In this document: piece by piece, positions 27,212 to 49,283 of the stretch
How positions within the stretch are numbered: the first letter of the stretch is position 1
Layout of the letters: every line of letters starts with the position of its first letter
From: an uncultured bacterium
Lineage (GTDB): Bacteria > Eisenbacteria > RBG-16-71-46 > CAIMUX01 > WJJG01
NCBI GenBank assembly: GCA_964654025.1
Contig: CAZZIF010000002.1
Coordinates: 883-64,882 of the forward strand
Direction of reading: 5' to 3'
Length of the DNA stretch: 64,000 bases
Notes under the pieces: generated by a model
Told to the model about the DNA's origin: nothing
The model's input: the letters and a program-made list of their open reading frames with translations, nothing else
The model's database searches: none
Position numbers and translations under genes: made by a program

Positions 27212-28795
27212 ATGGTGGAACGACGGATCGCAAAGAAGCGCGGACGAGAGGTCCAGTTGCTGGGCCTGCTTGTCATCGGCAGCCTCGGGCTTCTTGCCGG
27301 ACCAGCCCGAATCGGTGACCTCGGACCTGCGGCGAGTCTGGGGTTCGTGGCCACTGCGCAGACCGCAAACCAGCCAGAGCGCGCCAGCGCAGATCCCAGC
27401 TTGGACCAGCCTCTTGACGAGGTGGCTCCGGATCTGCGCATCCGCAGAAACGTCGAGCGCGCGTTGTCGGCAACCTGGGCGGTTCCCGCTGACAGCATCG
27501 CGACGGCGGTTGCGGATGGAATCGTGACGCTTTCGGGCTCGGTGCCCCATCTGCTGGCCAAGGACCAGGCGACACGGGCGGCCGAGGCCGTGCGTGGGGT
27601 TCGCGCCATCGTGAACCGCGTGGAGGTGCGGCCCCTTGCCCGCAGCGACGCCTTTTTGAGGGAACGGATTTCGAGGGCGTTGGCGGCGGATCCGGTGGTG
27701 GAGGCCGAGGACATCACGGTGGACGTCCTTCACGGTGAGGTCACCCTTTCTGGACCAGTGGGCTCCATAGTGGAGCAGCGCGCGGCGGTCCAGGCGGCCA
27801 AACGAATCGTAGGCGTGCTGGGTGTTCGCAATCTGCTTGACCTGGTCCCCGAACTGGATCGGCCCGATGAACGCATCGAGGAGGAAGTCAAACGCCGCCT
27901 GCGCTACGACGCGCTCGTGGTTGCCGATCGGATCGCGGTCGACGTCGAGGGCGGACATGTTCGTCTGTCGGGTCGGGTGCCCTGTGCTGCAGAGCGTAGG
28001 CGCGCCGAGACGGATGCCTCGGTCCCCGGCGTGCGATCCGTCCATGTAGAAGATCTGGTCGTGGATCCAGACATGGATCGCGCGTTCATGCACCGTGCGG
28101 ATCTGGTTGCCTCAGACTCTCCGAGTCTGGCAGAGGCCCCCAGTGACGAGGAGATCGAGCAGGCGATTGTCGCGTCGCTGTTTCAGGATCCACGGATCGG
28201 TGTGGATTTGATCGAAGTCGAGGTCGACGAAGGCGTCGCCTTTCTGCAGGGACAGGTCGAGCGACCGCGCGAAGTGCGTCTGGCTGAAGAGAACGCACGT
28301 CATACAGTGGGGGTCCTGGCGGTCAGGAATCACTTGAGCGTACGGCCGCCTCAGCGTCCCTCCGACCGGCAGCTCCAGGGCGCCGCCGAGGAAGCGCTCC
28401 AGGCGAATGCCTATGTGAACGGCGACTCGATCGAGGTGGCCGTCCATGGAGGGCTCATCTATCTGTTCGGCACAGTGGCCGATCATGGAACGGTTCGCGA
28501 GGCCATTGAAGTTCTGGAAAGCGTGCCCGGGGCGGTCGCGGTACTCAATAACCTGCGGGTTCTTCGCAACGGATCCGAGATGTCCGACGAAGAGCTGCGC
28601 AAGCGGGTGCAGTGGTTGATCGAGGGGTCGGCGCTGATCAAGGCGGATGAGGTCGTGGTCCTGTCCAATACCGGAACGGTCAGTCTCCGGGGTGATGTTC
28701 AGACCTGGACGGGGCGCGCCGTCGCGGAGGATCTGGCCTACCGGGCGGGTGCGCTCAGCGTCATCAACCGTCTGCAGGTGAGCGGTACCCGGTAA
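27212..28795 (+). CDS. Multi-BON-domain protein (OsmY-like), secreted/periplasmic
   Basis: Six or more BON repeats (pattern I..AL......V.V.V..G.V.LSG.V). N-terminal hydrophobic segment. The start at 27212 is uncertain. Confidence 0.65.
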   Translation: MVERRIAKKRGREVQLLGLLVIGSLGLLAGPARIGDLGPAASLGFVATAQTANQPERASADPSLDQPLDEVAPDLRIRRNVERALSATWAVPADSIATAVADGIVTLSGSVPHLLAKDQATRAAEAVRGVRAIVNRVEVRPLARSDAFLRERISRALAADPVVEAEDITVDVLHGEVTLSGPVGSIVEQRAAVQAAKRIVGVLGVRNLLDLVPELDRPDERIEEEVKRRLRYDALVVADRIAVDVEGGHVRLSGRVPCAAERRRAETDASVPGVRSVHVEDLVVDPDMDRAFMHRADLVASDSPSLAEAPSDEEIEQAIVASLFQDPRIGVDLIEVEVDEGVAFLQGQVERPREVRLAEENARHTVGVLAVRNHLSVRPPQRPSDRQLQGAAEEALQANAYVNGDSIEVAVHGGLIYLFGTVADHGTVREAIEVLESVPGAVAVLNNLRVLRNGSEMSDEELRKRVQWLIEGSALIKADEVVVLSNTGTVSLRGDVQTWTGRAVAEDLAYRAGALSVINRLQVSGTR

Positions 28796-28955
28796 GGGAA
28801 CTACCCCTTGACCCGCACCAGGGAATCCCCGATGGCGTGGTGGCCGGTGTGTGGCGCATGGTTGCTCGAGGTCGATCTTGGCATAGGTGCGGCGAAGCTG
28901 CCACTTCCGATTGGGGTGGGGGCGCCGTGCCGCCATCGAATGAGGAGAGTAGTCG

Positions 28956-29177
28956 ATGGATATAACAATTGATCGTGAGGAATGTACGTCGTGCGAAGTG
29001 TGTTGGAATGCGTGTCCTGAGGTGTTTCAACAGAACGACGACGACTCGTGGAGCGAGATCGTCGACAAACACCGCATGGATGGTGATCCGAGTCATGGTG
29101 AAGTAAGCGAGGATCTGGCCGATTGCGTTCGGGAGGCGGCCGAAGGCTGTCCGGTAGAGATCATCCATGTGTCCTAG
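28956..29177 (+). CDS. Small 4Fe-4S/3Fe-4S ferredoxin
   Basis: CTSCEVCWNACP...C cluster-binding pattern. GAGGAG RBS. Confidence 0.7.
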   Translation: MDITIDREECTSCEVCWNACPEVFQQNDDDSWSEIVDKHRMDGDPSHGEVSEDLADCVREAAEGCPVEIIHVS

Positions 29178-29327
29178 GGCACGGGTTCCAATGCACGGGT
29201 TCCAATGCACGGGTTCCAATGCACGGGTTCCAAAGTACGGCGTCGAGGAGGGGTATCGCAGGGTGCATGTCGGCCGACATGGGCTCCGTTCCCGATTCGA
29301 CATCCGTACATCTAGAGGGAGAAGGGG

Positions 29328-29714
29328 ATGACAGAATACCACGAGCCGTTTGATGTTCTGCCCGAAGGTGTGCGGAACATCCACCGGGCCCTGCGGAGCT
29401 TGATCGAAGAGGTGGAGGCCATCGACTGGTATCACCAGCGGGTCGCCGTCACGCAGGATGCGGCCCTGCGGGCGGTCTTGGCTCACAATCGCGACGAAGA
29501 GATCGAACATGCCTGCATGGCGCTGGAATGGCTGCGCCGGAACATGGATGGATGGGATGGAGAGTTGCGTGAGTATCTTTTCACCGACAAGGACATCGTC
29601 GCGACCGAGAGTGCCGGTGACGGCGGTCATGATGGTGAGAGCGCCGAAGCGGCCGATGACGACCGAGCCTCGCAGGATCTAGGCATTGGTGGCCATAGGA
29701 AGGAGAAGGATTGA
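29328..29714 (+). CDS. Encapsulated ferritin-like protein (EncFtn/Flp cargo) with C-terminal targeting peptide
   Basis: HEPFDVLPEGVRNIHRALRSLIEEVEAIDWYHQR...HNRDEEIEHACMALEWLRR matches the EncFtn metal-binding helices. C-terminal DLGIGGHRKEKD resembles the SLGIGSL cargo-loading motif. Confidence 0.75.
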   Translation: MTEYHEPFDVLPEGVRNIHRALRSLIEEVEAIDWYHQRVAVTQDAALRAVLAHNRDEEIEHACMALEWLRRNMDGWDGELREYLFTDKDIVATESAGDGGHDGESAEAADDDRASQDLGIGGHRKEKD

Positions 29715-30511
29715 TGGATCTGCTGAAACGCGCGCAGGCGCCCGTGACCGAGGAAGCCTGGGAACAGATCGAGGAAGAGACGCGGCGGACGCTCAAGGCC
29801 AACCTGTCCGCCCGGTGGCTCATGGACGTGGAAGGACCGCATGGGCCGGAGTTCGCTGCGCTGAACCTGGGCCGGATGGCTGTGCCGGAAAACCAGTCCA
29901 AGGAGGCCGTCCGTTACGGACTTCGGCAGGTCCAGCCGCTGATCGAGCTGCGGGCATCATTTACCCTCGATCAGTGGGAACTCGACAACGCGTCCCGTGG
30001 GGCGGAGGACGTCGATCTCGACCCCGCGGCCGACGCCGCCCGTGAGATGGCTCACTTCGAAGAACGAGCCATCTATGAAGGCTTACCGGAAGCCGGGATT
30101 ACCAGCCTGCGACAGGCCTCGGTGCATTCGGCGATCAAGCTCGGGGCCGAAGGCCTGAAGTATGCCGAGCCGATCAGCAAAGGGCTGGTGACGCTGCGTC
30201 AGGCGGGCATTGATGGCCCGTATGGTCTGGTGCTCGGGCCGAAGCCCTACGAGCGACTTGCTGCGGTCGGCCGGTCTTGCCCGACGATGCAGCACATCGA
30301 GCACTTGATTGGCGGCCCGCTTCTGCTCAGCCCAGTTCTCAAGGGCGGATTCCTGATATCCATGCGGGGAGGGGATTTCCAGCTGGTTCTGGGGCTGGAC
30401 GCATCACTGGGGTGGGAGTCGCACGAGGGCGGTTCGGTGACGCTGTTCTTGACCGAATCGTTCACCTTCCGGACCCTCGAGCCCCGCGCGGTGGTTCCCT
30501 TCGTGGAGTAG
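29714..30511 (+). CDS. Family 1 encapsulin nanocompartment shell protein (HK97-fold)
   Basis: The ATG overlaps the EncFtn stop (TGATG). MDLLKRAQAPVTEEAWEQIEEE...VEGPHG, LIELRASFTLDQWELDN and ERGGDFQLVLG...LTESFTF align along the full length with the Thermotoga maritima encapsulin (MEFLKR..., LIELRATFTLDLWELDN, ERGGDFKLILG..ITETFTF). Confidence 0.85.
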   Translation: MDLLKRAQAPVTEEAWEQIEEETRRTLKANLSARWLMDVEGPHGPEFAALNLGRMAVPENQSKEAVRYGLRQVQPLIELRASFTLDQWELDNASRGAEDVDLDPAADAAREMAHFEERAIYEGLPEAGITSLRQASVHSAIKLGAEGLKYAEPISKGLVTLRQAGIDGPYGLVLGPKPYERLAAVGRSCPTMQHIEHLIGGPLLLSPVLKGGFLISMRGGDFQLVLGLDASLGWESHEGGSVTLFLTESFTFRTLEPRAVVPFVE

Positions 30512-30599: not shown

Positions 30600-31562
30600 C
30601 TAGTTCCCACCTGTGGAGGTCATATCGGCATGGATGCGTTCGACGTCCGAGCGCCGGCACAGCTCGGTGCCGGGCGTCATCACCGCTGCTGCGCCCGCTG
30701 CGATGCCGAAGCGGACGGCGGAGGACAGATCGTTGCCGCGGGCCAGCCCCAGAACGATGCCGCCTACCATGCTGTCACCCGCGCCCACCTTGCTCTGGAT
30801 CCGGACGGAAGGCGCCCCCATGCGTTCGGCCGCCCGCTCCGTCACGAGTAGCGCGCCCCCGCGTCCCAAGGAGACGACCACCACCACGGCCCGGGCCTCG
30901 CCGATGAGTTCGCGGGCCGCAGCCTCGATGGCCTTCTCATCGCCGAGCTCACGGCCGGCCAGCGCCTCGAGTTCGGCCAAGTTCGGCTTGATCAGATACG
31001 CGCCCTCCGCCAAGGCTTGACGCAAGGGCTCGCCCTTGGTATCGACCACGAAACGCGATCCCGGCGGCAACCCTTGGCTCAAGCGAGCATAGTAGTCGTC
31101 CGGGACGCCGGGCGGGAGACTCCCGCTGGCCACGACATAGCAGGTTTCATTCTCATCGAGTGCCTTCTTGACCTCGCCCAACGTTCCATCGAGCATCCGG
31201 CTGGCTTCCTCGGCCGAAACATCCGCTCCCGGCATCACCAGGCGATACTGTGAGCCACTGGATTCATCGAGCAGATGGATGTTCTCCCTGGTCGTGGCAT
31301 CGAGGGCCACGCGCCGGTGAGAGAGTCCCGCTCCCTCGAGCAGTTGGGCCAGCCGCGCGGCCGTATCCCCTCCGCCGGCCCAGACCGCACGCGCGGTTCC
31401 ACCAAGCTCGTGTACCACCCGGGCCACGTTGATCCCGCCTCCGCCCGGTTGCCGACGAACCGAATGACAGCGGAGCTTCTTCTCGGGAGTGACGTGGGCC
31501 GCCCGGCAACTGCGGTCCAAACTCGCATTGATCGTGCTCGTGACGATGATGGATCTGGGCAT
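30600..31562 (-). CDS. PfkB-family carbohydrate kinase (1-phosphofructokinase/tagatose-6-P kinase-like)
   Basis: AAGGAG RBS. GGKGINVARV-type N-terminal motif (GGGGINVARVV). C-terminal GAGDSMVGG ATP-binding motif. Confidence 0.8.
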   Translation of the reverse strand: MPRSIIVTSTINASLDRSCRAAHVTPEKKLRCHSVRRQPGGGGINVARVVHELGGTARAVWAGGGDTAARLAQLLEGAGLSHRRVALDATTRENIHLLDESSGSQYRLVMPGADVSAEEASRMLDGTLGEVKKALDENETCYVVASGSLPPGVPDDYYARLSQGLPPGSRFVVDTKGEPLRQALAEGAYLIKPNLAELEALAGRELGDEKAIEAAARELIGEARAVVVVVSLGRGGALLVTERAAERMGAPSVRIQSKVGAGDSMVGGIVLGLARGNDLSSAVRFGIAAGAAAVMTPGTELCRRSDVERIHADMTSTGGN

Positions 31563-31851
31563 CGCATTCTCCTTTCAGCGCGACAGTAGCGGGGCCGATG
31601 ACTGGGAGCCGTCGGGCAGTGGCAGGAGGAGGCGCCCGGGAAGGTGCCGGTCTGTGGGGGCGGGGTGGCCCCTAGCCGGCTCGGGGCCACCGTATGGGGA
31701 ATGGCCCCATGGAGATGACCGGGCTTGCCCCAACTGCTTCTCGTCCATCATCGCAAGCATTCGTCGCATCTCCTGTTTACAATCTTATTGAAACAATCAA
31801 AATGGAATCTCCGATATCGATTCCGGAGCCCGCGTCTTTCGGAGCCCCTAC

Positions 31852-33429
31852 ATGTATGACGACATTGGCGAACACCTCAAGCCCGCCGTCCTTTTGATCT
31901 CTGACAGGAGCCGAGCGAGCCGACCGGTCCACTCCGTGCTGGAGCATCGAGGAATCAATATCCACGAGTGCCGGTCCATGCAGGAACTCGTCGAACGGAT
32001 GGCCAGCGGTAGCGGTCCGGTGGTTCTATCGGTGCCCGAACTCAATGCCGAGGACGCCGAGCTTCTTCTCAAGGAGCTGCGATCACAGCCCTACTGGTCG
32101 GACGTTCCCGTGATCTTGCTAGAGTCGGGGGCGACTTCGGTCGTGCCGGAAGAACTACGGAGGCAGCGGGGCACCACATTCCTGAAGCAGCCGATCGAGG
32201 ACGAGGTTCTCACCGGGGTCGTGCAGACCGCGATCGAAACCCGTCTCCGCCAGCTTCAGGTCCGAGATTTGCTGCTTCATCTCGAAGACCTCCATCAGAA
32301 GGCCGCGGTCAGGGCTCGTCATCTCCAGCATCTCTCGATGAAGCTCGCCACGGCTGAACATGACGAGCGCACGCGCATTGCCGGGGTCATCCACGACGAG
32401 TTCCAGCAGCTCCTGGTCGCAGCCCGCATGCGATTGGGGAGCCTTCAGGGGATTCAGGATGGTGGCGGCATGGCCGAGATGGCCGAAGCTTGCCGCGAGG
32501 TCGACGAGCTCTTGCGGGAAGCGATTCAGTCGGCACGTGGCTTGACACGCCAGCTGTCGCCGCCCGTACTGCGTCATGGAGGTTTGAGGGCGGCACTGAG
32601 CTGGTTGATCCAGACGTCGCGGGACCGCCACGATCTTCGCATCGACGCCGAGATCGCCCCGGCGGCGGATGAACTCGACCGGTCGATTCAACTGTTCATG
32701 TTCGAAGCCGCGCGTGAGTTGATCTTCAACGTCGTCAAGCACGCCAATACGCTCCGGGCGAGTCTCGACCTCAAGGTGACCTGTGAGAATGCCCTCCTAT
32801 CGGTCAAGGATGATGGGAGCGGATTCGATCCGAGCATCGTCGGGAACGACGCGGAGGCGCCGCAGGGATTGGGTTTGTTCGGCATTTCCGAGCGCGCGGC
32901 GCTGCTGGGAGGAAACCTGCACGTCCAATCGCATCCTGGAGGTGGGTGCGAAGTCGACCTTGCGATCCCGTTGGCCGTGCAGCCCAAGGTGAGCAAGGGG
33001 ACCTTTGCGACAGCCATCGATCCGGAGTTCGACCCAGGTCAGGAAGATGATTCCAGCGCGGTCGATGGTCGCAAGCGGGTCCTCGTCGTCGATGATCACC
33101 GGATCGTCAGACAGGGCATTGCTTCGATGCTTGCCCACCACGAGGACATCTTGGTCATTGGTGAGGCGTCGGACGGGCAGGAAGCCCTCGAGAAGGCGCG
33201 CGCCCTCAAACCTGATGTCATCCTCATGGACGTATCCATGCCGGGAATGAACGGGATCGACGCCACCCGCGCCATCCGCAACGAGATGGACGAGATTGAC
33301 ATCATCGGCCTGTCCATGTTCGAGATGGAGGAAATCGGACAGCAGATGCTGGATGCGGGCGCGCGATGTTATCTACCGAAGAGCGGTCCCGCGCAGGCGT
33401 TGCTCGAGGAAATCCGCTTTGCACGCTAG
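31852..33429 (+). CDS. Hybrid sensor histidine kinase: N-terminal (pseudo)receiver, HisKA_3 dimerisation/phosphoacceptor, HATPase_c, C-terminal REC domain; no membrane or obvious sensor domain
   Basis: HDERTRIAGVIHDEFQQLL (HisKA_3 H-box, NarX/DosS type). GLGLFGISERAALLGGNL (G2 box). C-terminal RVLVVDDHRIVRQGIASML...DVILMDVSMPGMNGI (REC with D-MP motif). AT-rich promoter-like region upstream (31760-31850). Confidence 0.75.
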   Translation: MYDDIGEHLKPAVLLISDRSRASRPVHSVLEHRGINIHECRSMQELVERMASGSGPVVLSVPELNAEDAELLLKELRSQPYWSDVPVILLESGATSVVPEELRRQRGTTFLKQPIEDEVLTGVVQTAIETRLRQLQVRDLLLHLEDLHQKAAVRARHLQHLSMKLATAEHDERTRIAGVIHDEFQQLLVAARMRLGSLQGIQDGGGMAEMAEACREVDELLREAIQSARGLTRQLSPPVLRHGGLRAALSWLIQTSRDRHDLRIDAEIAPAADELDRSIQLFMFEAARELIFNVVKHANTLRASLDLKVTCENALLSVKDDGSGFDPSIVGNDAEAPQGLGLFGISERAALLGGNLHVQSHPGGGCEVDLAIPLAVQPKVSKGTFATAIDPEFDPGQEDDSSAVDGRKRVLVVDDHRIVRQGIASMLAHHEDILVIGEASDGQEALEKARALKPDVILMDVSMPGMNGIDATRAIRNEMDEIDIIGLSMFEMEEIGQQMLDAGARCYLPKSGPAQALLEEIRFAR

Positions 33430-33480
33430 AGGAAAGGGCGCCCAAGGGCGCCAAGGGGCGCCGAAGGACTCCAAAGGGCG

Positions 33481-34539
33481 CTAGACGGATGCTTCTTGGC
33501 GCTCATCACGTTGTGCCGAACCGGCGCCGCGCCGGCCCAGCATGTACTTGGCGAGATCGACCACCCGACACACATATCCCCACTCATTGTCGTACCAGGC
33601 GAGGACCTTGACGCTGTGCGAGCCTACCGTCTTGGTGGAAGGGAGGTCCACCAAAGCCGAGTACTCGCTGCCGACGATGTCAGCGGAGACCAGCTCGTCG
33701 CCGGTGGTGCCGAGGACCCCCCGAAGCTTGTCACGGCCCTCTCCCTCGAGAAACACCCGATGAACGGCATCGGTGTCGGTCTCGCGCCTCGTATGCACGA
33801 CAAGATCTACGATGGACCCATCGGCCACCGGCACCCGCATGGCCATCCCATCCATGCGCCCCTCGAGTTGAGGCAGGACATCAGCGATGGCTGTCGCTGC
33901 CCCGGTTGTGGTAGGGATGATCGAAATGGCGGCAGCGCGGCCTCGGCGATGTTTCTTGCTGGGGGAGTCGACCAGCGACTGGGAGTTCGTGTAGGCGTGG
34001 ACCGTCGTCATGAGGCCGCTCTCGATGCCAAAGGCCTCGTCCAAGAGCATGGCGACCGGGGCTAGACAATTGGTTGTGCAGGATCCATTCGAGACGATAT
34101 CGTGTTTCTCGTGATCGTAGATGTCCTCATTGACACCCATGCAAATCGTCGCATCCGGTTTGGGGCTCTTGCCGGGGGCCGTAATGACGACCTTTGTGGC
34201 GCCGGCTTCGAGATGCTGCGCCGCCTCGTCGCGGGTGCGGAAGATGCCGGTAGCTTCCACGACAAACTCCACCTCGAGTTGCGCCCAAGGTAACTCGGTG
34301 GGTTTGGCCTTGTTCAGGTAGGCGATCTTGCGGTCACCCCAATGCAACGTATCGCCCTTCCCATGAATCAGAACTTCAGGGTCAGGATAAATCGAGTCGT
34401 GTTTGCAGAGATAGGCGATTTCTTCAATTCCCGCGATGTCGTTGACGGCCACGACCTCGAGAGACTCTTGCGCCATCATCTGGCGCAGGGTGAGCCGACC
34501 CATGCGACCCATTCCGTTGATGGCAACTCGTGTACTCAC
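33481..34539 (-). CDS. gap: Type I glyceraldehyde-3-phosphate dehydrogenase
   Basis: GTG start at 34539 with an AGGGAGGA RBS 5 nt upstream, giving MSTRVAINGMGRMGR. NAD motif. SCTTNCLAP catalytic Cys. Confidence 0.85.
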   Translation of the reverse strand: MSTRVAINGMGRMGRLTLRQMMAQESLEVVAVNDIAGIEEIAYLCKHDSIYPDPEVLIHGKGDTLHWGDRKIAYLNKAKPTELPWAQLEVEFVVEATGIFRTRDEAAQHLEAGATKVVITAPGKSPKPDATICMGVNEDIYDHEKHDIVSNGSCTTNCLAPVAMLLDEAFGIESGLMTTVHAYTNSQSLVDSPSKKHRRGRAAAISIIPTTTGAATAIADVLPQLEGRMDGMAMRVPVADGSIVDLVVHTRRETDTDAVHRVFLEGEGRDKLRGVLGTTGDELVSADIVGSEYSALVDLPSTKTVGSHSVKVLAWYDNEWGYVCRVVDLAKYMLGRRGAGSAQRDERQEASV

Positions 34540-36127: not shown

Positions 36128-36439
36128 CTACTCCCAAGGCGCGGTGCGCTGCCGCGTCGCACCACGCAAGTGGGTGCGAAGCACGTTCTCTTCCCGAGGA
36201 TCGCCGACCACATGGAAGAGCTGGTCGGCGACATGGATGTCGGCTACGATCGTGCGCGTCGTATCCTTCGCCGGCGGCGATCGAAAGAGAATGCGTACCG
36301 GAGCCGAGGCGAGCGCGTCGGCTTCCAGCGAAGCCGACATCTCTTCATTGACGGGCAATCCGTCCGCGTCCACGACATCGAATCCCACTGTGCGTACCGA
36401 GTTCAGCAGCTCGATGAACTCCATGTTGGTTTCGGTCAT
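36128..36439 (-). CDS. Hypothetical small protein (103 aa)
   Basis: AAGGGGGA RBS 4-5 nt upstream of the ATG at 36439. No recognisable family. Confidence 0.35.
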   Translation of the reverse strand: MTETNMEFIELLNSVRTVGFDVVDADGLPVNEEMSASLEADALASAPVRILFRSPPAKDTTRTIVADIHVADQLFHVVGDPREENVLRTHLRGATRQRTAPWE

Positions 36440-36836: not shown

Positions 36837-37054
36837 GGGTGTTCCCTCCCTCTCTTGCCGTGACGCACCTTGTCCCATCCGGGTGGGCACAGTCCCAAAG
36901 GCGAGGTCAGTCTAGAACGGCGGAGGAAGAGGGCAAATGGGAGCTGTTCTGAGGGCAGCGTGGGAGGGCTCCCGATATTCCGCGCCAGAGTGTGCTTCGT
37001 AGGCTGTGCATGAAGTTCAGGCCGCATGTGCATCGCCCTCCGATGCAACACGAT

Positions 37055-37110: not shown

Positions 37111-37123
37111 ACACGGAGCAGAT

Positions 37124-39559: not shown

Positions 39560-39636
39560 CCCAGGTGAGTCGCGATCTCATCGATCCGATCGCTCGAAGA
39601 GACACTCTTAGAGAAACTCAAGGAAAGGGGGCCATC

Positions 39637-41271: not shown

Positions 41272-41781
41272 TCAGCCGAGAACTCGTAGCGCAGCGTCGA
41301 TGAACTCTGGAAGGTCATGCGGATTCCGGCTCGAAATCATGTTGCGATCGCGGACCACCGGCTGGTCCTTGACGATCGCACCTGCATTCTCCATGTCCTT
41401 CCGGATGGATGTATATCCAGTCACCGTTCGGCCGTTCAGCACATCAGCGGTAATCAAGAGCTGCGGAGCGTGGCAAATCAGGAAGACAGGCTTGTCGGCC
41501 TCCACGAACTCCCGCACGAAGGAGACGACCGGTTCATGAACCCGGAGCCGATCCGGTGAGTAGCCTCCGGGAATGAACAGGGCATCGTATTCGGTTGGAT
41601 CTGCGTCGGCGATGTTCAGATCGATCAGAACCGATTCTTGATTTCGCTTCCCGATGACTTTATCACCGGTCTTGAGTCCGATGTGGGTCAATGTGTGACC
41701 CGCCTCTCGGAAGCTGTTGGCGGGGCGGGTGTATTCAGAGTCTTCGAAGAGATGGTCGACAAGTACGGCGATAGTGGCCAT
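41272..41781 (-). CDS. DJ-1/PfpI family protein (class I glutamine amidotransferase-like; deglycase/protease)
   Basis: AGGAGG RBS 6 nt before the ATG at 41781. AIVKD...FLICHAPQLL nucleophile-elbow Cys and DALFIPGG motif. Confidence 0.8.
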   Translation of the reverse strand: MATIAVLVDHLFEDSEYTRPANSFREAGHTLTHIGLKTGDKVIGKRNQESVLIDLNIADADPTEYDALFIPGGYSPDRLRVHEPVVSFVREFVEADKPVFLICHAPQLLITADVLNGRTVTGYTSIRKDMENAGAIVKDQPVVRDRNMISSRNPHDLPEFIDAALRVLG

Positions 41782-41815
41782 GCGTGTCCTCCTGGTTCTG
41801 GTTCCACGGCGGCTA

Positions 41816-42217
41816 TCAGGCCACCGGCAAGGCCAGAGGCTTCGATGACTGCCACAGGCCGTGGATGTTGCAAAGACTGGTAGCAAAAAGCGTCCCCGGC
41901 TTGTCGGTCTTGAATGATACCTGGACCTCGTGATGCGTGTAGACCCCGCTCGTATCGGGACCGTCCACGGATTCGCCATGTGCCTGGAATGCCGTGTGGG
42001 CGATTTCATAGGGGAACGGAGCATCCTCGGGATGGAAGTACACCTTGATCCACCGAATGTGATGAGCGGTCTCGTTCGGATGCGCGACTTCTTTCCCAAG
42101 GGTGACCGTGATCGGGAAGTACTGCCCCTTCTCTACTTCCTCCGGTACTTCTATCACCGGCACGTGTTTCTCGGTCTTCCAGTCATCGGTTTGATAGAGC
42201 TTGCAGATGTCTGCCAT
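41816..42217 (-). CDS. Superoxide reductase (desulfoferrodoxin ferrous-iron-binding domain)
   Basis: KHVPVIEV, HHIRWI and CNIHGLWQS (the SOR iron ligands His/His/Cys/His). GGAGGAGG RBS. Confidence 0.8.
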   Translation of the reverse strand: MADICKLYQTDDWKTEKHVPVIEVPEEVEKGQYFPITVTLGKEVAHPNETAHHIRWIKVYFHPEDAPFPYEIAHTAFQAHGESVDGPDTSGVYTHHEVQVSFKTDKPGTLFATSLCNIHGLWQSSKPLALPVA

Positions 42218-42658
42218 GGGCTGGCCTCCTCCATGTCGTCTGTGTGTACTGCTCGGGTGAACCGCCTATTGCACGGAGCACCGGGTATTCGCACTGGTGG
42301 CAATCCGGGCCTGCCGGGGTGGGAGGGGCGGAACGGGAGTGATGGTGCACAGGGATCGAGTACTCCCGTTCCACCCCATGGGTTGGGGGATGAGCGTAGC
42401 AGAAGCGTAGGGCGTGCGGCCGGCGTGCGGAGCCAAACAGCCGCACGATCTACGAAACTACTTGATCGTGACGATGCTTCGATCGCGCGACCCCGCTTTC
42501 TTCATCGTGACCGCCCTTCTATGCCTATCGATGTCTTGCGCTTGGCGGCAGTATCCTCGATGGAGAATGCCGCTCGCCATCGGGGAACAGCCGGTCAGGG
42601 CTTCGGGTAGATCGCCAGGTCGGACCAGGGGTTGATTCCGTCTCTGGTGTGACGCGAG

Positions 42659-43816
42659 CTAGGCCGCTAGACCTCGTGGCAGCTCTGCGTCGCCCTCCAG
42701 GTCCAGCTTCACGGAGAGGAAGCGCAACAGGTCCTTCAACGCCAGCATCCCGAGCAACTTGTCACCCTCGGCGACGATCAGGCGGCCGGCTTGGTTACGG
42801 TTCATCTTCTCGAGTGCCTTGACCGCATCGGTGTGGGGCGCGATCGTATTGCTGTCCGAACAGGGTTGCGCCGCATCTCCAACCCGATAGCGACTCCACT
42901 CCTCGCGGGGGATCTCCTTGACGTTCCGGGTTGTGATGCAACCGACCAGACGTTCCTGATCCACTACCGGATATAGTTTGTAGTGATGGCGGTAGACGTA
43001 GTCCTCCACGAACTCTCCAATCGAAAGGGACGAGGATACGGACACGGGAGACCCTTTCATGAAGCGGCGTACCTCCTCGCCCTGCAATGCAATACGAATC
43101 AAGAGCTGCTGGTAGCTGTTCTTGGCGACCGAGCGGATGAAGAATCCGATCAGGATCCACCACAATCCCCCGATTGGGTTCATGAACAGCAGGTTGACTA
43201 CACCCAAGCCCACGAGCAATAGCCCGAAGCCGGCCCCAACGCGAGAGGCGATGCGGGTCGCCTCCCGTAGGTTGCCCTTCTTCTTCCAAATCAGGGCACG
43301 GAGCACCCGGCCTCCGTCGAGGGGATAGCCGGGAATCATATTGAAGACGACCAGCACACCATTGATGTATCCGATCCAGCGCAGCACGGCGGTCACCGGT
43401 TGGGACCATCCCCATGAGGTCCCGAGGGTGGCCAGCCCCAGGAAGACGCCCAGGACGAGGACACTGGCCAAGGGCCCGGCGATGGCCATCTTCAGCTCGG
43501 CCATCGCGCTAGGGGGTTCGTCAGACATCTCCGCCACCCCACCAAACAAAAACAGCGTGATGCCCTTCATGGGAAGGCCCGATCCGCGGGCCACCAAGGA
43601 GTGGGACATCTCATGGAAGACGATCGATAGGAACAAGCCGGCCGCGGCGGCCAGCCCCATGAGTCCATACTGCCACCCGCTCAGTCCTTCGACCTGCTGC
43701 GGAAACACTCCACCGGCCAGCGACCAGACAACGAGCGCGAGGATCAGAAGCCAGCTGAGATCAATGCGCACGGCGAAGTCGAACAGTGTGAATAGCGTGT
43801 ATCGCTTACCGAACAT
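42659..43816 (-). CDS. Site-2-protease-family M50 zinc metalloprotease with C-terminal CBS pair
   Basis: AGGAGG RBS before the ATG at 43816. HEMSHSLVAR (HExxH) with GGVAEM. Multiple TM helices. The C-terminus has 2 CBS domains (VSVSSSLSIGEFVEDY..., LVGCITTRNV...). Confidence 0.8.
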   Translation of the reverse strand: MFGKRYTLFTLFDFAVRIDLSWLLILALVVWSLAGGVFPQQVEGLSGWQYGLMGLAAAAGLFLSIVFHEMSHSLVARGSGLPMKGITLFLFGGVAEMSDEPPSAMAELKMAIAGPLASVLVLGVFLGLATLGTSWGWSQPVTAVLRWIGYINGVLVVFNMIPGYPLDGGRVLRALIWKKKGNLREATRIASRVGAGFGLLLVGLGVVNLLFMNPIGGLWWILIGFFIRSVAKNSYQQLLIRIALQGEEVRRFMKGSPVSVSSSLSIGEFVEDYVYRHHYKLYPVVDQERLVGCITTRNVKEIPREEWSRYRVGDAAQPCSDSNTIAPHTDAVKALEKMNRNQAGRLIVAEGDKLLGMLALKDLLRFLSVKLDLEGDAELPRGLAA

Positions 43817-44257
43817 GGGCGACCTCCTAGACTGGCCTCCTGGGCTGTCCTCTTGGCGGTGGTGAGTTGCGGACTCGCATACACAATCACGCACCGTGAG
43901 TGTCAGGAGCAACCGGGCGGCCTCCCGGCTGGCGTCTAGGATCTGGCCCGAGGGCAACCAGGTTCGAGAAGTGTGATGGTGGGGAGACGTCCTCGTGAAG
44001 TCGTTGGCGGTGGGGAAGTCCCGTGCCATGGGGGATTCCCCGAAATTTCCGTGTGCGGGTTGCTAAGTGCTGTAGTTTAGGCGCATTCATTGGCACCTCG
44101 CTTAGCTGTTCTTGGTTTGTTTGCAGTCACCGGCTATACTGCGGGCACTGACCAAGAGCATGGGCCGGGCGAGGCTGAGGGGTGTTCTGAGCAATGCGTT
44201 ATCAGATCCGGTAGACGTTCTTCAGCTCTTGCGGACTGCTCGGTAGGGGAGGAAAGC

Positions 44258-44920
44258 ATGACCACGAATATTCAGAACCGCACCAAGGTGTTACTCGTCG
44301 ACGATCATCCGATCGTTCGCCGGGGACTGGCGAAGCTGTTGGGAGAACGTCCCAATATCGACATCTGTGGCGAGGCCGACGGGGCCGCGCAGGCACTCGA
44401 TCATATCGCCAAGGACCGGCCGGACCTGATCATCATCGACATTTCGCTCAAGGATGTCGGCGGCATCGAGCTGATCAAACAGATCCGTGCCCTGGATAGC
44501 GAGATCAAGCTCATGGTGTGCTCTATGCACGACGAGAACCTGTATGCCGAAAGAGTGCTTCAAGCGGGCGCCCTGGGCTATGTCAACAAGGAGACTGCCA
44601 CCGAGCGCATCTTCGACGCCATCGAACAGGTCATGGCCGGCAGGGTCTATCTCAGCCCCGAGATGTCCGAGCAACTTCTCAGCCGCATGGTGGGCGGGGA
44701 GCCAAACACGGACAAGACCTCCATCGAAACACTGTCGGATCGTGAGCTCGAGGTGTTCGAGCTGATCGGGCGGGGATTGACGACGCGGCAGATCGCCGAG
44801 CGGCTGTGCCTGAGCGTCAAGACGATCGAGACCTACCGAGAGAACCTGAAGATCAAACTGAACCTTACGAACAGCCCCATGTTGATTCGTGCCGCGGTTC
44901 AGTGGCTCGAAACGCGCTAG
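44258..44920 (+). CDS. NarL/FixJ (LuxR)-family response regulator
   Basis: GGGGAGGA RBS. REC domain KVLLVDDHPIVRRGL...DLIIIDISL. C-terminal HTH LuxR domain LSDRELEVFELIGRGLTTRQIAERLCLSVKTIETYR. Confidence 0.85.
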   Translation: MTTNIQNRTKVLLVDDHPIVRRGLAKLLGERPNIDICGEADGAAQALDHIAKDRPDLIIIDISLKDVGGIELIKQIRALDSEIKLMVCSMHDENLYAERVLQAGALGYVNKETATERIFDAIEQVMAGRVYLSPEMSEQLLSRMVGGEPNTDKTSIETLSDRELEVFELIGRGLTTRQIAERLCLSVKTIETYRENLKIKLNLTNSPMLIRAAVQWLETR

Positions 44921-44975: not shown

Positions 44976-45179
44976 TCACTCACGGACATCGTGAACGAGA
45001 ATGGCCTGGCTCGGGCATTCGGCCGCCACCGCCACGCAATCGGTCTCGAGTTCGGCCGGCACCTTGTCGACCAAGACGGTGGCCTTCTTGCTGCCCTCCT
45101 GGAACCGGAAGATGCTCGGCAAGCGCATGACGCATATGCCGGCGCCTGTACATTTGACCTGATCTACTTCAACTCGCAT
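44976..45179 (-). CDS. Small ferredoxin (single [3Fe-4S]/[4Fe-4S] cluster, FdxA-like)
   Basis: AAGGA RBS before the ATG at 45179. MRVEVDQVKCTGAGICVMRLPSIF...DCVAVAAECPSQAI cluster-binding pattern. Confidence 0.65.
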   Translation of the reverse strand: MRVEVDQVKCTGAGICVMRLPSIFRFQEGSKKATVLVDKVPAELETDCVAVAAECPSQAILVHDVRE

Positions 45180-45246: not shown

Positions 45247-47706
45247 TCAGTCCGAGAGATGGGATACGGCAACCGTCTGCCCATGGCTATTGGTTTCATC
45301 CGGCCGCAGACTGAATTCCGCGGTGTCACCGGCACACAGCTCCGCTTCCTCCTGATGACACGCAACGCGGATCGTCCCGGTTCCCATCTCTCGCGCGGTG
45401 ATTCTCAGCTCGTCCCGAGACAGCACCACGACGAGGGAATGTTTTCGGTAGCGTAGGGTCATTCGCAGGCAATCGATGCCGATCGGCAGCGCCGGATTGA
45501 ACCACAGCGCGTCCCCTCGTGTTTCGAGCCCCGTGTAGTTGCGCTGCACGAGATCGACCGTGCCCGCCATGGCGCCGAGATGGATTCCCTCCGGTGTCGT
45601 TCCCCCCTGGATGTCGCTGAGATCGGCATCGAGCGCCTCGCTGAATAACTTCCAGGCCCGTTCACGATCCGACCGTGCCAGCACCCACGCATGAACCACG
45701 TGGCTGAGCGTGGAGCCATGCGGGGTCCGTTTCAAGTAGTACGTGACATTGGCGGGGATCATATCCGGGTGCCACGTGATGCCAAGCCGGGTGAACATCT
45801 CTTCGAGTTCCTCGGCCGAAAACAGATAGAAGAGCATGAGCACATCGGCCTGCTTGGAGACCTTGTAAGCATTGGGCGTGTCGCCTTCGGCCTCCAGAAT
45901 GCGGTCCAAGCGTTGGATGTTGCCGTACTTCTCCCGGTAGCCGTCCCAATCGAACTCCTTGAGGTCGAAGTATCCTTCGAACTGGCTGATGATCCCCTCC
46001 TCGGAAATCACGACGCGCAGTTTCCGGCTGATCTCATCCCAGGCCTCGATTTCGCTCTCGTCGATCCGAAGCAGCTCGCGCAGGGTCGAAAGGCGCTCCT
46101 CCGGAAGAATCTCCAGCAACTCCAGCGCTCGGCAGAGAACCCACGACGCCATGACATTGGTGTAGGCGTTGTTGTCGAGGCCGGGTTCGGGCGTATCCGG
46201 AAGCCGGTCGTGATACTCGTCCGGGCCCATGACCTTGCGAATTTCGTAACAGTCGAAGGTGCTGTTGTAGGTGGCCAAGCTGGCGAAGAGACGGGCGATC
46301 TCCAAGATCATCTCGGCGCCGATCCAGCTCAAGAACTCGCGGTCATCGGTGACCTGATAGTGCTGCCAGACGTTGTAGGCGATGGACGCGTTGACGTGCC
46401 TCTGGAGATGAGTATTGTCCGGCAGCCAGCGCATCGACCTCGGATTGAGGTGAAGCACCTGGCTCTCTTCGCGGCCGTCACTCCCGCTCTGCCAGGGATA
46501 GAGGGCGCCTTGGAAGCCTTCCCGCTGGGCCGCCGCCCGGGCTTCGGAGAGCCGCCGGTACCGGTAGCCGAGCAGCGCGCGCGTTATCTCCGGCATGCGA
46601 AGGTTGAGCGTAGGGAAGATGAACATCTCGTCCCAGAAAATGTGGCCTCGGTAAGCCTCCCCGTGAAGACCTCTGGCCGGGACACCCACATCGAGTCCCA
46701 TGATGTTGGGCGACGCCGTCTGAAGGATGTGAAACAAATGCAGGTGCAGAACCAGCGATGTGTGGGAGGCCTGTTCTTCATCAGGTCCTTCGAGAGCCAG
46801 GTCGAAGCGCTGCCACAGATGGTACCAGAGACCGGCATGCCGGCGCGCCAGCGACTCGAAGTGCTCGGCGCGATCGAGCTCCTTGACGGCAGCCAGACCG
46901 CATTCGGAGATGGCTGGATCCCGAGAGGTATAGAGCGCTACGGTCTTCTCGATCGTGATCGGATGGCCCTCGGCTGCCCGGCAGTCGAAGAACTGAGCAA
47001 CATAGGCATCTTCACCGGCTGCCGTGACGGGAGGGGGCACCTGGCGTCCCTGGCATTCCACGCGGGTGCGGGCCGCCTGGACGATCTCGATGTGGGACTG
47101 GTTCGTGCGTACCCGCAGGAGCATGCCGCCGTTGATGGCACGGGCCTCCAAGGGCTCCAGGTGGCGACTCTCCAGCGGCCGGTAACGAGCGACATTGTCG
47201 TTGATGACACGTCCATCGAGCGCTGATCGGATCTGAATCGTTCCCGACCAGTTTTCGGGAAGCAGCGTTGCCTCCAGAGCTGCCAGATGTGGGCTGTCCA
47301 TGTGGACGAGCCGCCGCGAGCGATACTGCGACACCCGCCCCTCCCGGTCGCGAAAGCGAATGTTCCGCTGCAGGATGCCGCGTTTGAGATCGAGTTGCTG
47401 GTGATAGTCCAGGAGTTCGACGCGGCGGAAGTCGATCCAGTCTTCTCCCGCTACCCGGAGAGAGAGGGGGAGCCAGTTGGGCATGTTGACCAGGTCTTCG
47501 TTTTCGACCTTGTGATGAGCGATTTCGGTTTCGCGCCGGTTGTAGCCGCCCGCCAAGTAGGTGCCGGGATAGTGCACATCGTCGGCTCGGGTCTCCTCCC
47601 CTGCGCCACGCGTTGCGAAGTAGCCATTGCCGAGGGTGCAGAGCGCTTCGCGTAAGCCCTCTTGCTCGGGGGCGAAGCCTTCATAGCTCAGATGCCAGAT
47701 TGACAA
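45247..47706 (-). CDS. Glycoside hydrolase family 65 phosphorylase (trehalose / trehalose-6-phosphate / kojibiose phosphorylase-like)
   Basis: TTG start at 47706 with a GGGAGG RBS, overlapping the stop of the upstream gene by 19 nt. N-terminus WHLSYEGFAPEQEGLREALCTLGNGYFATRGAGEE is the GH65 N-terminal signature. Central (alpha/alpha)6 domain. Confidence 0.8.
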   Translation of the reverse strand: MSIWHLSYEGFAPEQEGLREALCTLGNGYFATRGAGEETRADDVHYPGTYLAGGYNRRETEIAHHKVENEDLVNMPNWLPLSLRVAGEDWIDFRRVELLDYHQQLDLKRGILQRNIRFRDREGRVSQYRSRRLVHMDSPHLAALEATLLPENWSGTIQIRSALDGRVINDNVARYRPLESRHLEPLEARAINGGMLLRVRTNQSHIEIVQAARTRVECQGRQVPPPVTAAGEDAYVAQFFDCRAAEGHPITIEKTVALYTSRDPAISECGLAAVKELDRAEHFESLARRHAGLWYHLWQRFDLALEGPDEEQASHTSLVLHLHLFHILQTASPNIMGLDVGVPARGLHGEAYRGHIFWDEMFIFPTLNLRMPEITRALLGYRYRRLSEARAAAQREGFQGALYPWQSGSDGREESQVLHLNPRSMRWLPDNTHLQRHVNASIAYNVWQHYQVTDDREFLSWIGAEMILEIARLFASLATYNSTFDCYEIRKVMGPDEYHDRLPDTPEPGLDNNAYTNVMASWVLCRALELLEILPEERLSTLRELLRIDESEIEAWDEISRKLRVVISEEGIISQFEGYFDLKEFDWDGYREKYGNIQRLDRILEAEGDTPNAYKVSKQADVLMLFYLFSAEELEEMFTRLGITWHPDMIPANVTYYLKRTPHGSTLSHVVHAWVLARSDRERAWKLFSEALDADLSDIQGGTTPEGIHLGAMAGTVDLVQRNYTGLETRGDALWFNPALPIGIDCLRMTLRYRKHSLVVVLSRDELRITAREMGTGTIRVACHQEEAELCAGDTAEFSLRPDETNSHGQTVAVSHLSD

Positions 47707-49283
47707 AGATCTGCCTCCCTCATCGTCTTGTGCAATTCATCCAGGAAGTGGCGGACGGCGTAGGGATCCTGTAACAGATATTGGGCGTGGGTTTCATGAG
47801 GGCCACCCATGACGGCGATTGCGAGTCCCCTCTCCGAGAGAGCCCCGAAGGCGTCTTCGTCGGTGACGTCATCGCCGATGTAGAGGGGAACCGCCCGGGC
47901 CTCGTCCAGATGCTGCACATCGAGAATCCAGTGGACCGCGCGTCCCTTGTCCCACGGGATGTTGGGTCCGAGGTCGAAGACCTTGCGTCCCCGCGAGACC
48001 CGCAGTTGCGGAATCTCGTCGGTGATCGCGCTGACCTCGGCGGCGATGACCGGAATCAGGCCGGGATCGACCTGGCGCACATGGATTGCGATAGAGTAGC
48101 TCTTGCGCTCGAGTTCTGCGCCCGCCACGCGGCCTACGAGGCTGCGGAGTTTCTGCTCGGCCTCCTCGAGCTTCGGCAAGGTCGCCTGGGCATCGTCCTG
48201 GACGAAGGTCTCTCCCTTCGGCCCTTCGATCTCGAAGCCGTGGCTGCCGGCGTACCACAGGTTCTCGAGCCCGACGCGCCGCTTCACGTCTTGAAGGTCA
48301 CGGCCGCTGACCACGGCAGTGGGAACGCATTGCGCGAGGGTCGCCATGCTCCTGCGCGTCGCCTCGGGTAGGTCCGCCTGGTTGGGATCGTCCACAATCG
48401 GCGAAAGGGTGCCGTCGAAATCGAGAAAGACCGCCAGCTGGCGGTTCCCCAGCTTCTGGGGGAGTGAGTGCAGTAGACGTATCGCGTCCGGCAAAGCGGC
48501 TTTCCGCCGCTGGGGGCCCTGCTTCTTGGGATGGGTCATCTTCACGTCGCCCAGGTCATTGACGACGACATCCGCGCCACCATCGTGAAGATCCTGGTGA
48601 TTGGCATTGCGCGCCACGCCGAGCACGCAGCCGAATCCCCCCCGGTGGCCCGCCGCTACGCCCGACACGGCATCCTCAATCACGATAGCCCGGGCAGGCG
48701 AGACCGACAGGCGCCGAGCGGCCTCCAAGAAGGTGTCGGGTTGCGGCTTGCCGGCCAGACTCTGGCGTTCGGCTTCGACACCATCGACGATGACCTCGAA
48801 GAGGTGATCGAGGTGGGCCGCCTCGAGCAGGGCCCGGGCGTTCTTGCTTGACGAGACCAGGCCGAGGTGGATGCCCCGTTTCTTGGCCTCGTTGAAGAAG
48901 TCGACGGAACTATCGTAGCGCTCCACCCCATCGCGCTGAATTCGCTCGCGGAACTTGCGGTTCTTGTCGTTGCCGATCCCGCAGACCGTCTCACGATCCG
49001 GTAGATCCTCCGGCGAACCCCAGGGCAGCTTGATACCGCGGGAGTCCAGGAAGGACTTGACACCCTCGTAGCGGGGCAGTCCGTCCACGTAGCGCAAGTA
49101 GTCGTGGCGGGGATCGAAGGGATCCTGCGCCTCACCGGTCTTGCCTGAATACTTCGCCAGGAACTCATCGAAGGCGTCCTTCCAGGCCGCCGCGTGGACC
49201 GTCGCCGAACGGGTGACGACGCCGTCGAGATCGCTGATGATGGCATCATAGCGATCCGGCAGGACGATCATCTCTGCAATCAT
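47688..49283 (-). CDS. otsB: Fusion protein: beta-phosphoglucomutase-like HAD domain (N-terminal) + trehalose-6-phosphate phosphatase OtsB domain (C-terminal)
   Basis: AAGGGGG RBS before the ATG at 49283. N-terminal DAIISDLDGVV...GKPQPD (HAD motifs I-III, PgmB-like). C-terminal AVFLDFDGTLSPIVDDP...YIGDDVTDEDAF (T6PP motifs). An in-frame His-rich repeat region upstream (to 49493) leaves an alternative longer start open. Confidence 0.75.
   Translation of the reverse strand: MIAEMIVLPDRYDAIISDLDGVVTRSATVHAAAWKDAFDEFLAKYSGKTGEAQDPFDPRHDYLRYVDGLPRYEGVKSFLDSRGIKLPWGSPEDLPDRETVCGIGNDKNRKFRERIQRDGVERYDSSVDFFNEAKKRGIHLGLVSSSKNARALLEAAHLDHLFEVIVDGVEAERQSLAGKPQPDTFLEAARRLSVSPARAIVIEDAVSGVAAGHRGGFGCVLGVARNANHQDLHDGGADVVVNDLGDVKMTHPKKQGPQRRKAALPDAIRLLHSLPQKLGNRQLAVFLDFDGTLSPIVDDPNQADLPEATRRSMATLAQCVPTAVVSGRDLQDVKRRVGLENLWYAGSHGFEIEGPKGETFVQDDAQATLPKLEEAEQKLRSLVGRVAGAELERKSYSIAIHVRQVDPGLIPVIAAEVSAITDEIPQLRVSRGRKVFDLGPNIPWDKGRAVHWILDVQHLDEARAVPLYIGDDVTDEDAFGALSERGLAIAVMGGPHETHAQYLLQDPYAVRHFLDELHKTMREADLCQSGI

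Follow-up and report, generated by a model that had tools for sequence, protein, structure and literature searches.

The effector set of the DosR (DevR) regulon comprises universal stress proteins (USPs), HspX/Hsp20, Acg-type nitroreductases, Tgs1, NarK2/NarX, PfkB, FdxA, Rv2006, Rv2625c, Rv2629, and Rv0079, and the sensor kinases DosS and DosT are defined by tandem GAF domains, the first of which binds haem. Binding to the ribosomal A-site together with EF-Tu is a trait of the Balon family of hibernation factors. The DosR regulon is organized in blocks, among them Rv2028c-2032 and Rv2623-2631 (PMC5309233). OsdR from Streptomyces coelicolor is 61% identical to DevR and has kept 11 of 13 DNA-contact residues; both proteins bind GGG...CCC palindromes at -80 to -100 (PMC5069765). 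Balon is an experimentally shown hibernation factor encoded mostly in stress operons, with RaiA, OsmC, OsmY, Hsp20, and RtcB as typical neighbours (PMC10901736), and a 2025 preprint places chimeric HPF-Csp genes beside Balon (bioRxiv 10.1101/2025.11.04.686544). An initial annotation of a contig from an uncultured bacterium (CAZZIF010000002.1) had proposed that positions 27212-49283 of a 64,000-nucleotide stretch (hereafter, the window) constitute a gene-for-gene analogue of the DosR regulon. Analysis of the window revealed an island, roughly 30 kb in size, of stress and hibernation genes whose promoter regions share a palindrome, TGGGG-N4-6-CCCCA. We favour, with modest confidence, the interpretation that this island is a lineage-specific, two-component-controlled stress/hibernation regulon and that the palindrome is the predicted operator of the NarL-type response regulator encoded within it.

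Palindromes with G4 and C4 arms were first noticed when the intergenic regions of the window were read. Of the six divergent promoter regions in the island, five have the motif (13-15 bp) in exact form and the sixth has a variant, located 100-225 nt ahead of the start codons on either side; two near-matches (atpD-PolX and P460) were found by weight matrix. The sites are given below (L numbers denote related loci, which were recovered via the Balon and regulator proteins).

27017-27031: palindrome TGGGGGCACTCCCCA, divergent intergenic region between the genes for an SDR oxidoreductase and BON6a
31695-31709: palindrome TGGGGAATGGCCCCA, intergenic region between pfkB and the hybrid histidine kinase (HK) gene; kept in L005 and present as CGGGGGATTCCCCCA in L002
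34713-34728: palindrome TGGGGTGGTCTCCCCA, between the GAPDH gene and the Balon-type (baeRF) gene; the homologous place in L002 has TGGGGCGCTCCCCCCA, followed by conserved GCATTGGCGGAAG
36961-36975: variant palindrome TGGGAGGGCTCCCGA, between the STAS and phosphoenolpyruvate (PEP) synthase (PpsA) genes; identical in L005 and L002
42384: decayed half-site TGGGGGATGAGCG, in the 441-bp gap (42218-42658) between the genes for superoxide reductase (SOR) and the M50 protease
44029-44042: palindrome TGGGGGATTCCCCG, upstream of the response regulator (RR) gene, in the M50-RR region
49499-49513: palindrome TGGGGGATCACCCCA, upstream of the HAD-TPP operon and of OsmC
57371-57385: near-consensus palindrome TGGGGGCAAACCCTA, atpD-PolX divergent intergenic region
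63398-63412: near-consensus palindrome TGGGGGAACTCCCGA, ∼180 nt upstream of the cytochrome P460 gene

Counting overlapping matches, exact GGGG-N3-6-CCCC occurs nine times in the window, which corresponds to six sites (shuffle expectation for the window, 10.5). All six are in intergenic regions of the island (SDR-BON6a, pfkB-HK with two, GAPDH-baeRF, M50-RR, and HAD-TPP-OsmC), and none is in the 56.5 kb of coding DNA, where ∼9 matches were expected from dinucleotide shuffles. This avoidance in coding sequence may be due to codon usage or to selection against stray sites. When palindromes with each of the 256 possible four-base arms were enumerated without bias at every spacing, GGGG-N4-6-CCCC ranked first, being present in five of nine island intergenic regions (2.8 kb) and absent from the remaining 61 kb. 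Under a first-order Markov null model fitted to these intergenic regions, the number of regions with a site averaged 0.67, and five were reached in 0 of 2,000 simulations. Upstream of the TreZ, MalQ-TreY, and HPF-CSD genes, no palindrome was found.

Genes in the 64-kb window were called from open reading frames (ORFs) and codon-position GC, and the proteins were scanned against Pfam and NCBIfam, which confirmed all initially annotated gene identities at their coordinates. The genes of the island are as follows.

26116-26886, minus strand: SDR oxidoreductase, glucose-1-dehydrogenase-like (Pfam, NCBIfam; start refined); divergent from BON6a, with which it shares the putative operator region at 27017
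27212-28795, plus strand: BON x6 protein with hydrophobic N-terminal segment, BON6a (Pfam, NCBIfam)
28956-29177, plus strand: single-cluster 4Fe-4S ferredoxin, fdx1 (Pfam, NCBIfam)
29328-29714, plus strand: encapsulated ferritin, EncFtn (Pfam, NCBIfam)
29711-30511, plus strand: family-1 encapsulin (Pfam, NCBIfam)
30600-31562, minus strand: PfkB-family hexose/phosphofructo-kinase (Pfam; TIGR03168, 285.6 bits, cutoff 216.4)
31852-33429, plus strand: soluble hybrid histidine kinase, HK (HisKA_3, HATPase_c, and C-terminal receiver)
33481-34539, minus strand: type I GAPDH (Pfam, NCBIfam)
34878-36068, plus strand: Balon-type protein, baeRF family 3/7, 396 aa (Pfam)
36128-36439, minus strand: 103-aa conserved protein without family match, kept beside the SpoIIAA-like gene in L001-L005
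36468-36836, minus strand: SpoIIAA-like/STAS protein (Pfam)
37103-39559, plus strand: PEP synthase, PpsA (NCBIfam equivalog)
39565-41169, plus strand: secreted BON x6 protein with signal peptide, 6 nt after the PEP synthase gene
41272-41781, minus strand: DJ-1/PfpI (Pfam, NCBIfam)
41816-42217, minus strand: neelaredoxin-type superoxide reductase, SOR (Pfam, NCBIfam)
42659-43816, minus strand: M50 metalloprotease with HExxH (HEMSH), LDG, and tandem CBS domains (Pfam); divergent from the regulator gene
44258-44920, plus strand: response regulator of the NarL/GerE family, REC and GerE domains, RR (Pfam)
44976-45179, minus strand: 3Fe/4Fe ferredoxin (Pfam), same operon as GH65 and HAD-TPP
45247-47706, minus strand: GH65 with N, middle, and C domains (Pfam)
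47688-49283, minus strand: beta-phosphoglucomutase-type HAD plus trehalose-6-phosphate phosphatase, HAD-TPP (TIGR02009 and TIGR00685 above cutoffs)
49666-50136, plus strand: OsmC-family peroxiredoxin (Pfam, NCBIfam)

The M50 protease with CBS domains had been recognized correctly, as both the HExxH motif and two CBS domains were found. The proposed end of the block at 49283, in contrast, was not upheld, because OsmC, a full N-ATPase operon, and more motif-bearing promoters come after it.

Among close relatives, island content varies. L002, whose Balon protein is 79% identical, has the same gene order from EncFtn to STAS. L005, the 94% relative, shares ∼85-90% nucleotide identity with the window and lacks GAPDH (window 33481-34539 versus L005:3112-3204). 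L085/L086 (regulator 86% identical) have the order PRTase-DJ1-BON-SOR-HSP20-M50CBS / RR, then fdx-GH65-HADTPP, a hypothetical gene, and the N-ATPase operon, which thus adjoins the island in L085, too (L085:16146-20663). PRTase and HSP20 genes are thus present in L085; the latter (7717-8157) lies between SOR and M50, with an intact site, where the window has the 441-bp gap. In L089, the regulator gene comes after a shorter Balon gene. The divergent M50-CBS/RR pair is conserved in L005, in L085/L086, and in an Eisenbacteria metagenome-assembled genome (MAG; L090, regulator 63% identical), where a Balon gene follows the pair and motif-like sites are nearby.

Amid diverged and poorly alignable flanks, the palindrome forms a conserved block at homologous places in L002, L005, L085, L088, and L089. 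The site at the regulator gene is kept in all five loci concerned (the window and four related uncultured genomes, L005, L085, L088, and L089), ∼98 nt upstream of a conserved GCTATACTG, irrespective of whether the upstream neighbour is M50 or baeRF. The site upstream of HAD-TPP is present in three loci (the window, L085, and L088) with three different divergent neighbours, namely OsmC, a 201-aa hypothetical protein gene, and a PRC-domain gene. Conserved sites are also found at pfkB-HK, upstream of baeRF, and at STAS-PpsA.

The response regulator consists of a receiver domain, in which D15, D16, D61, and K111 are present and invariant in the alignment, and a C-terminal GerE helix-turn-helix with KTIETYRENLK as the recognition helix. 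No other DNA-binding protein could be recognized among the scanned ORFs of the island. The best match of the regulator in the PDB is DevR (9e-32), followed by VraR (6e-28) and NarL (1e-26). Identity with DevR is 34%, and of K179, K182, and N183, which we take to be the base-contacting residues of DevR, one of three is kept (K/E/T in the regulator). Orthologues from its own lineage are 85-96% identical, a few others, including that of the Eisenbacteria MAG, 63-67%, and many from Planctomycetota 53-60%. Low identity, loss of contact residues, and greater proximity to Eisenbacteria and Planctomycetota (53-67%) speak against the initial equation of this protein with DosR. Gimesia panareensis, a cultured planctomycete, has a regulator homologue of 55% identity (L093, CP036277.1, 1863296-1883961), the neighbours of which encode a rhodanese, BON, HSP20, CsrA, and a kinase of the REC-PAS-HisKA_3 type; in front of this kinase gene, the divergent region contains a single exact copy of the palindrome, TGGGGGAAATCCCCA. 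This organism is a possible experimental handle, although the finding is not significant on its own.

The kinase is composed of a pseudo-receiver (∼13-123, without the phospho-acceptor Asp), HisKA_3, HATPase_c, and a canonical C-terminal receiver. Neither GAF nor PAS domains nor a transmembrane segment were found in it with Pfam, the PDB, and NCBIfam. Only the HisKA_3/HATPase core is common to this protein and DosS/DosT, and as it is devoid of the GAF haem sensor, the proposal that it is their equivalent was not supported.

The protein encoded at 34878-36068 is, as judged by its sequence, a Balon-type (bacterial aeRF1-like) ribosome hibernation factor. It matches Pfam baeRF_family3 (5.6e-33) and also family7, and a profile of its subfamily aligns over the full length with Balon from Psychrobacter (8rd8_B; 1.5e-37) and matches that from M. 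smegmatis (MSMEG_1130; 1.5e-7). Its 396 aa contain neither a GGQ nor a NIKS motif. As its scores on the Psychrobacter Balon model AOC03_06830 (108.9 bits; cutoff 330) and on the Rv2629-family model (26.3 bits; cutoff 320) are far below the equivalog cutoffs, it represents a separate Balon subfamily; beyond its own lineage, identity to the closest homologues does not exceed 40%. The initial comparison with Rv2629 was therefore right as to the baeRF/Balon homology but not as to the subfamily.

A scan of the genome collection with the subfamily profile yielded 80 loci, 79 of which are from other lineages in many phyla (31-37% identity). All ORFs up to 10 kb away from the Balon gene were clustered for these loci together with the window and L002 (81 loci, including up to three of the window's lineage), and the most recurrent neighbours were NarL-type regulators (nine loci), PfkB (seven), DJ-1 and M50-CBS (six each), GAPDH, PEP synthase, USP, and short HPF (five each), and P-type ATPase (four). 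Identities of such neighbours to the proteins of the window were 67-68% for PpsA, 63% for SOR, 52-55% for M50, and 50% for PfkB. In L016, from another phylum, an HPF-CSD fusion 41% identical to that of the window is encoded directly downstream of Balon (11277-11825). Clustering in the island exceeds chance, because its families are the most recurrent neighbours of the same Balon subfamily in 77 loci from other phyla. In the passages of the Balon papers considered here, PfkB, GAPDH, PpsA, M50-CBS, and a dedicated two-component system with operator are not mentioned. The recurrence suggests that ribosome hibernation, sugar-phosphate/trehalose metabolism, and a CBS-gated protease are functionally connected, and it bears on the unexplained DosR-regulon members Rv2006, Rv2029c, and Rv2625c.

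The HAD-TPP and GH65 genes overlap by 19 nt, and the pair is collinear with a fused protein of 1330 aa (P0366; 47% and 50% identity, respectively); unfused forms of ∼520 aa are commoner among the representatives. Products of GH65 phosphorylases are beta-glucose-1-phosphate, the substrate of beta-phosphoglucomutase. As the GH65 product would thus feed the beta-phosphoglucomutase, and as a trehalose-6-phosphate phosphatase is present, knowledge of the families suggests that the unit serves turnover of trehalose or trehalose-6-phosphate. Rv2006 (OtsB1) is presumably built of HAD, trehalose phosphatase, and GH65 modules in that order. If so, Rv2006-type proteins and the unit described here agree in their three modules and in the module order, the difference being that the modules are split between two overlapping genes in the window.

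In the interpretation favoured here, the island would extend from ∼26.1 kb to at least 50.1 kb, possibly to 57-63 kb, and consist mostly of divergent transcription units, with one palindrome per divergent promoter region as the operator of the regulator encoded at 44258-44920, which would also govern its own gene. Binding of the regulator to the palindrome is proposed because of their proximity, the apparent autoregulation, and the fact that no other DNA-binding protein could be recognized among the island ORFs scanned. A HisKA_3 kinase would phosphorylate the regulator, the best candidate being the soluble hybrid kinase of the island, the gene of which bears a putative operator itself. The active regulator, probably an activator rather than a repressor, would then switch on ribosome hibernation (the Balon homologue), trehalose turnover (the operon for trehalose-6-phosphate phosphatase/beta-phosphoglucomutase and GH65), gluconeogenic/glycolytic rerouting (PEP synthase, GAPDH, and PfkB), and iron sequestration together with detoxification of oxidants and electrophiles (encapsulated ferritin, ferredoxins, superoxide reductase, DJ-1, and OsmC). 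Envelope/osmotic protection (BON proteins, perhaps the N-ATPase) and the CBS-gated M50 protease may be further targets; membership of the N-ATPase operon in the regulon is possible. In physiological terms, the gene set reads as one for survival of general, desiccation/osmotic, and oxidative stress plus ribosome hibernation rather than for hypoxia sensing. Nothing points to hypoxia, which had been put forward as the cue for the island, and the kinase has no haem-sensor domain that would suggest such a signal.

Several observations weigh against this assignment. The kinase and regulator genes lie 11 kb apart and not in one operon. The G and C arms are separated by 4 to 6 nt, a variation that is not usual in a rigid dimer site, no fixed spacing between the motif and a -10-like hexamer was found (54-125 nt), and the regions upstream of SOR-DJ1, fdx1, and EncFtn have no good site. 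A metagenome scan gave 80 loci with regulator homologues of 43-54% identity; among 73 of these homologues, two had the palindrome upstream, which is no enrichment (0.079 versus 0.071 per kb), and neither M50 nor Balon nor other island families were neighbours. As a KT[IV]ETYR helix is common to many of these distant homologues, the motif cannot be predicted from the helix alone, and the link between motif and regulator appears to be lineage-restricted; the 73 homologues speak against the palindrome as a general feature of the regulator family. The single site in 20 kb of Gimesia sequence is within chance expectation. A different regulator encoded elsewhere, for instance a global stress regulator, might thus bind the palindrome, the island regulator merely being one of its targets. 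Such an arrangement would agree with a motif-regulator link that is given by proximity only, with the lack of enrichment at homologues sharing the recognition helix, with a variable spacer and a far-upstream position unlike those of typical NarL-family sites, and with the near-matches at atpD-PolX and upstream of P460, outside the initially annotated block. We nevertheless regard it as rather unlikely, since the site upstream of the regulator gene is found across relatives whatever the neighbour, no other DNA-binding protein was recognized among the island ORFs scanned, and GerE-type dimers commonly bind short palindromes, as OsdR/DevR do with GGG...CCC at -80 to -100 (PMC5069765).

Coincidence would be an alternative explanation for both the palindrome and the DosR resemblance, the locus then being an unremarkable stretch in which unrelated stress and metabolic genes lie together. 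The nine GGGG-N3-6-CCCC matches in the window indeed approximate the shuffle expectation, stress genes are often neighbours, and island content differs between relatives (GAPDH, HSP20, and PRTase). This is, however, quite improbable given that all exact sites are in island promoter regions and kept at homologous positions while the flanks diverge, and that the same families recur beside this Balon subfamily in several phyla. Likewise, there is hardly any room for a true orthologue of the actinobacterial DosR/DevR (OsdR) regulon with DosRST-type control responding to hypoxia, NO, or CO, even if DevR is the best PDB match of the regulator, six or seven DosR-regulon families are present, and the operator would be a G-rich/C-rich palindrome in both cases. 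The regulator is 34% identical to DevR, compared with 61% for OsdR, has one of the three base-contacting residues, and finds its closest relatives in Eisenbacteria and Planctomycetota; the kinase has no GAF domain, and the Balon protein falls outside the Rv2629 family. The DosR box (TTSGGGACTWWAGTCCCSAA, core GGGACN4GTCCC, up to two mismatches) had 29 matches versus 66.2 expected, none of them at the divergent promoter sites of the island. Neither USP nor Hsp20 was found in the window, including the 441-bp SOR-M50 gap (Pfam of ORFs; tblastn). By these features, membership in DosRST/the DosR regulon was ruled out.

Beyond the island, the window contains the following genes.

17696-18253, minus strand: HPF (S30AE) fused to a cold-shock domain, HPF-CSD, 185 aa (Pfam, NCBIfam)
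18522-20597: TreZ, upstream of the block
20676-25988, plus strand: MalQ (4-alpha-glucanotransferase)-TreY fusion, 1770 aa (NCBIfam PRK14507 fused type), adjoining TreZ
50189-57243, minus strand: N-type ATPase operon atpD-C-Q-R-B-E-F-A-G (Pfam AtpR, ATPase_gene1, and all F-type subunits)
57480-62569, plus strand: Pol X (PHP domain), NAD-dependent DNA ligase, and transaldolase, co-directional from the atpD-PolX divergent region
62667-63218, minus strand: cytochrome P460-domain lipoprotein, with a divergent intergenic region upstream

The trehalose synthesis genes noted in the initial annotation are thus in place as TreZ and MalQ-TreY, and so is the upstream HPF gene, except that its product is an HPF-cold-shock-domain fusion. 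Short tandem repeats (period 9-23 bp, two to seven copies, with a different unit per array) abut gene starts and stops throughout the window, outside the island, too; examples are 29179-29240, 33433-33481, 37050-37106, 49294-49377, 49616-49654, 57259-57298, 14938-15031, 18263-18364, and 63885-63968. L002 has tandem-repeat arrays of its own at comparable places, for example upstream of baeRF.

G+C content is uniform across the window (∼60-66%); no Rfam families or tRNAs were found in it. As integrase or mobile-element signatures were not found in the window either, there is no sign of recent transfer. Matches to the NAD-dependent DNA ligase (LigA) of the window from its own lineage are 98, 93, 81, and 70% identical; the next named matches (57-60%) are from Planctomycetota, Brocadiia, Hydrogenedentota, Lentisphaerae, Phycisphaerae, and Eisenbacteria, and there were no Actinobacteria among the best 120. 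A non-actinobacterial genome, as initially postulated, is therefore borne out, whereas the label "FCB-group-like" could not be established, because the LigA matches favour PVC phyla equally. The LigA of L085 is encoded on the same 109-kb contig as the L085 island.

Viewed more widely, and still tentatively, the data may reflect a Balon-centred "hibernation toolkit" that moves and persists as a functional module across many phyla, wired to non-orthologous two-component regulators. Its parts would be Balon, a chimeric or short HPF, USP, M50-CBS, PfkB, GAPDH, and a PEP-utilising enzyme, with HAD-TPP-GH65 in some lineages. DosR blocks 6-8 (Rv2003c-2007c, Rv2028c-2032, and Rv2623-2631) would be its actinobacterial instance, and in the present lineage it would be wired to a NarL-type protein recognising TGGGG-N5-CCCCA. 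Were this true, Rv2006, Rv2029c, and Rv2625c would act together with ribosome hibernation and not be a mycobacterial peculiarity. Similar effector sets can come under unrelated regulators. If, in turn, the palindrome is the operator of the island regulator, a compact dormancy/stress regulon exists outside Actinobacteria, with nearly all of its units in one DNA stretch, so that operator, regulator, and targets would be testable with few probes.

How the island relates to the DosR regulon can be stated more precisely than by a gene-for-gene analogy, which fails for the regulator (34% identity to DevR), the GAF-less kinase, and the lacking DosR box. When counterparts were assigned by protein family, Rv2629, Rv2625c, Rv2029c, Rv2006, Rv0079, and the ferredoxin had family-level equivalents; the regulator, sensor, and operator are different. 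The overlap in effectors with DosR blocks Rv2028c-2032 and Rv2623-2631 is the core of the impression that the initial annotation conveyed. The annotation had named wrong families, or a missing shared operator motif combined with missing co-induction, as grounds for giving up its proposal; as an operator-like palindrome is shared by the island promoters, neither ground applies, but the palindrome differs from the DosR box. Six or seven DosR effector families are present in the window, and Hsp20 is encoded in the L085 island; families for nitroreductase, DGAT, and nitrate respiration were not among the Pfam matches of the window ORFs scanned.

Both systems have a NarL-family regulator with a HisKA_3 kinase, a G-rich/C-rich palindrome that precedes many units, among them the regulator gene itself, and the Balon, M50-CBS, PfkB, HAD-TPP-GH65, ferredoxin, and HPF families. 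They differ in the regulator (34% identical to DevR, with K182 and N183 replaced), in the operator (TGGGG-N5-CCCCA here instead of TTSGGGACTWWAGTCCCSAA), in the sensor (a hybrid kinase with a pseudo-receiver in place of tandem GAF/haem domains), and in their arrangement, as the genes are contiguous here, whereas the M. tuberculosis set is spread over nine blocks. USP, HspX, nitroreductase, Tgs1, and nitrate-respiration genes were not found in the window, which in turn has encapsulin-ferritin, SOR, DJ-1, OsmC, BON proteins, PEP synthase, GAPDH, and the N-ATPase in addition. The OsdR/OsdK region of S. coelicolor (SCO0167-SCO0219) resembles the island in layout, as it is contiguous around an autoregulated regulator, has, within divergent intergenic regions, the palindrome AGGGCCGATCGGCCCT at about -80 to -100, and holds a PEP-utilising dikinase, SCO0208 (PMC5069765). 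Still, OsdR is a true orthologue of DevR, and the sensing residues of OsdK are like those of DosT, neither of which applies here. Moreover, USPs, a nitroreductase, and the Nar2 nitrate reductase, none of which was found in the window, predominate in the S. coelicolor region. With the Balon stress operons, as far as the passages considered here describe them, the island shares a full-length homologue of Psychrobacter Balon in a stress-gene setting with OsmC, and it differs from them by its PfkB, GAPDH, PpsA, and M50-CBS neighbours and by a two-component system with a candidate operator. The island thus follows a DosR/OsdR-like design, but its regulator and sensor have been recruited independently.

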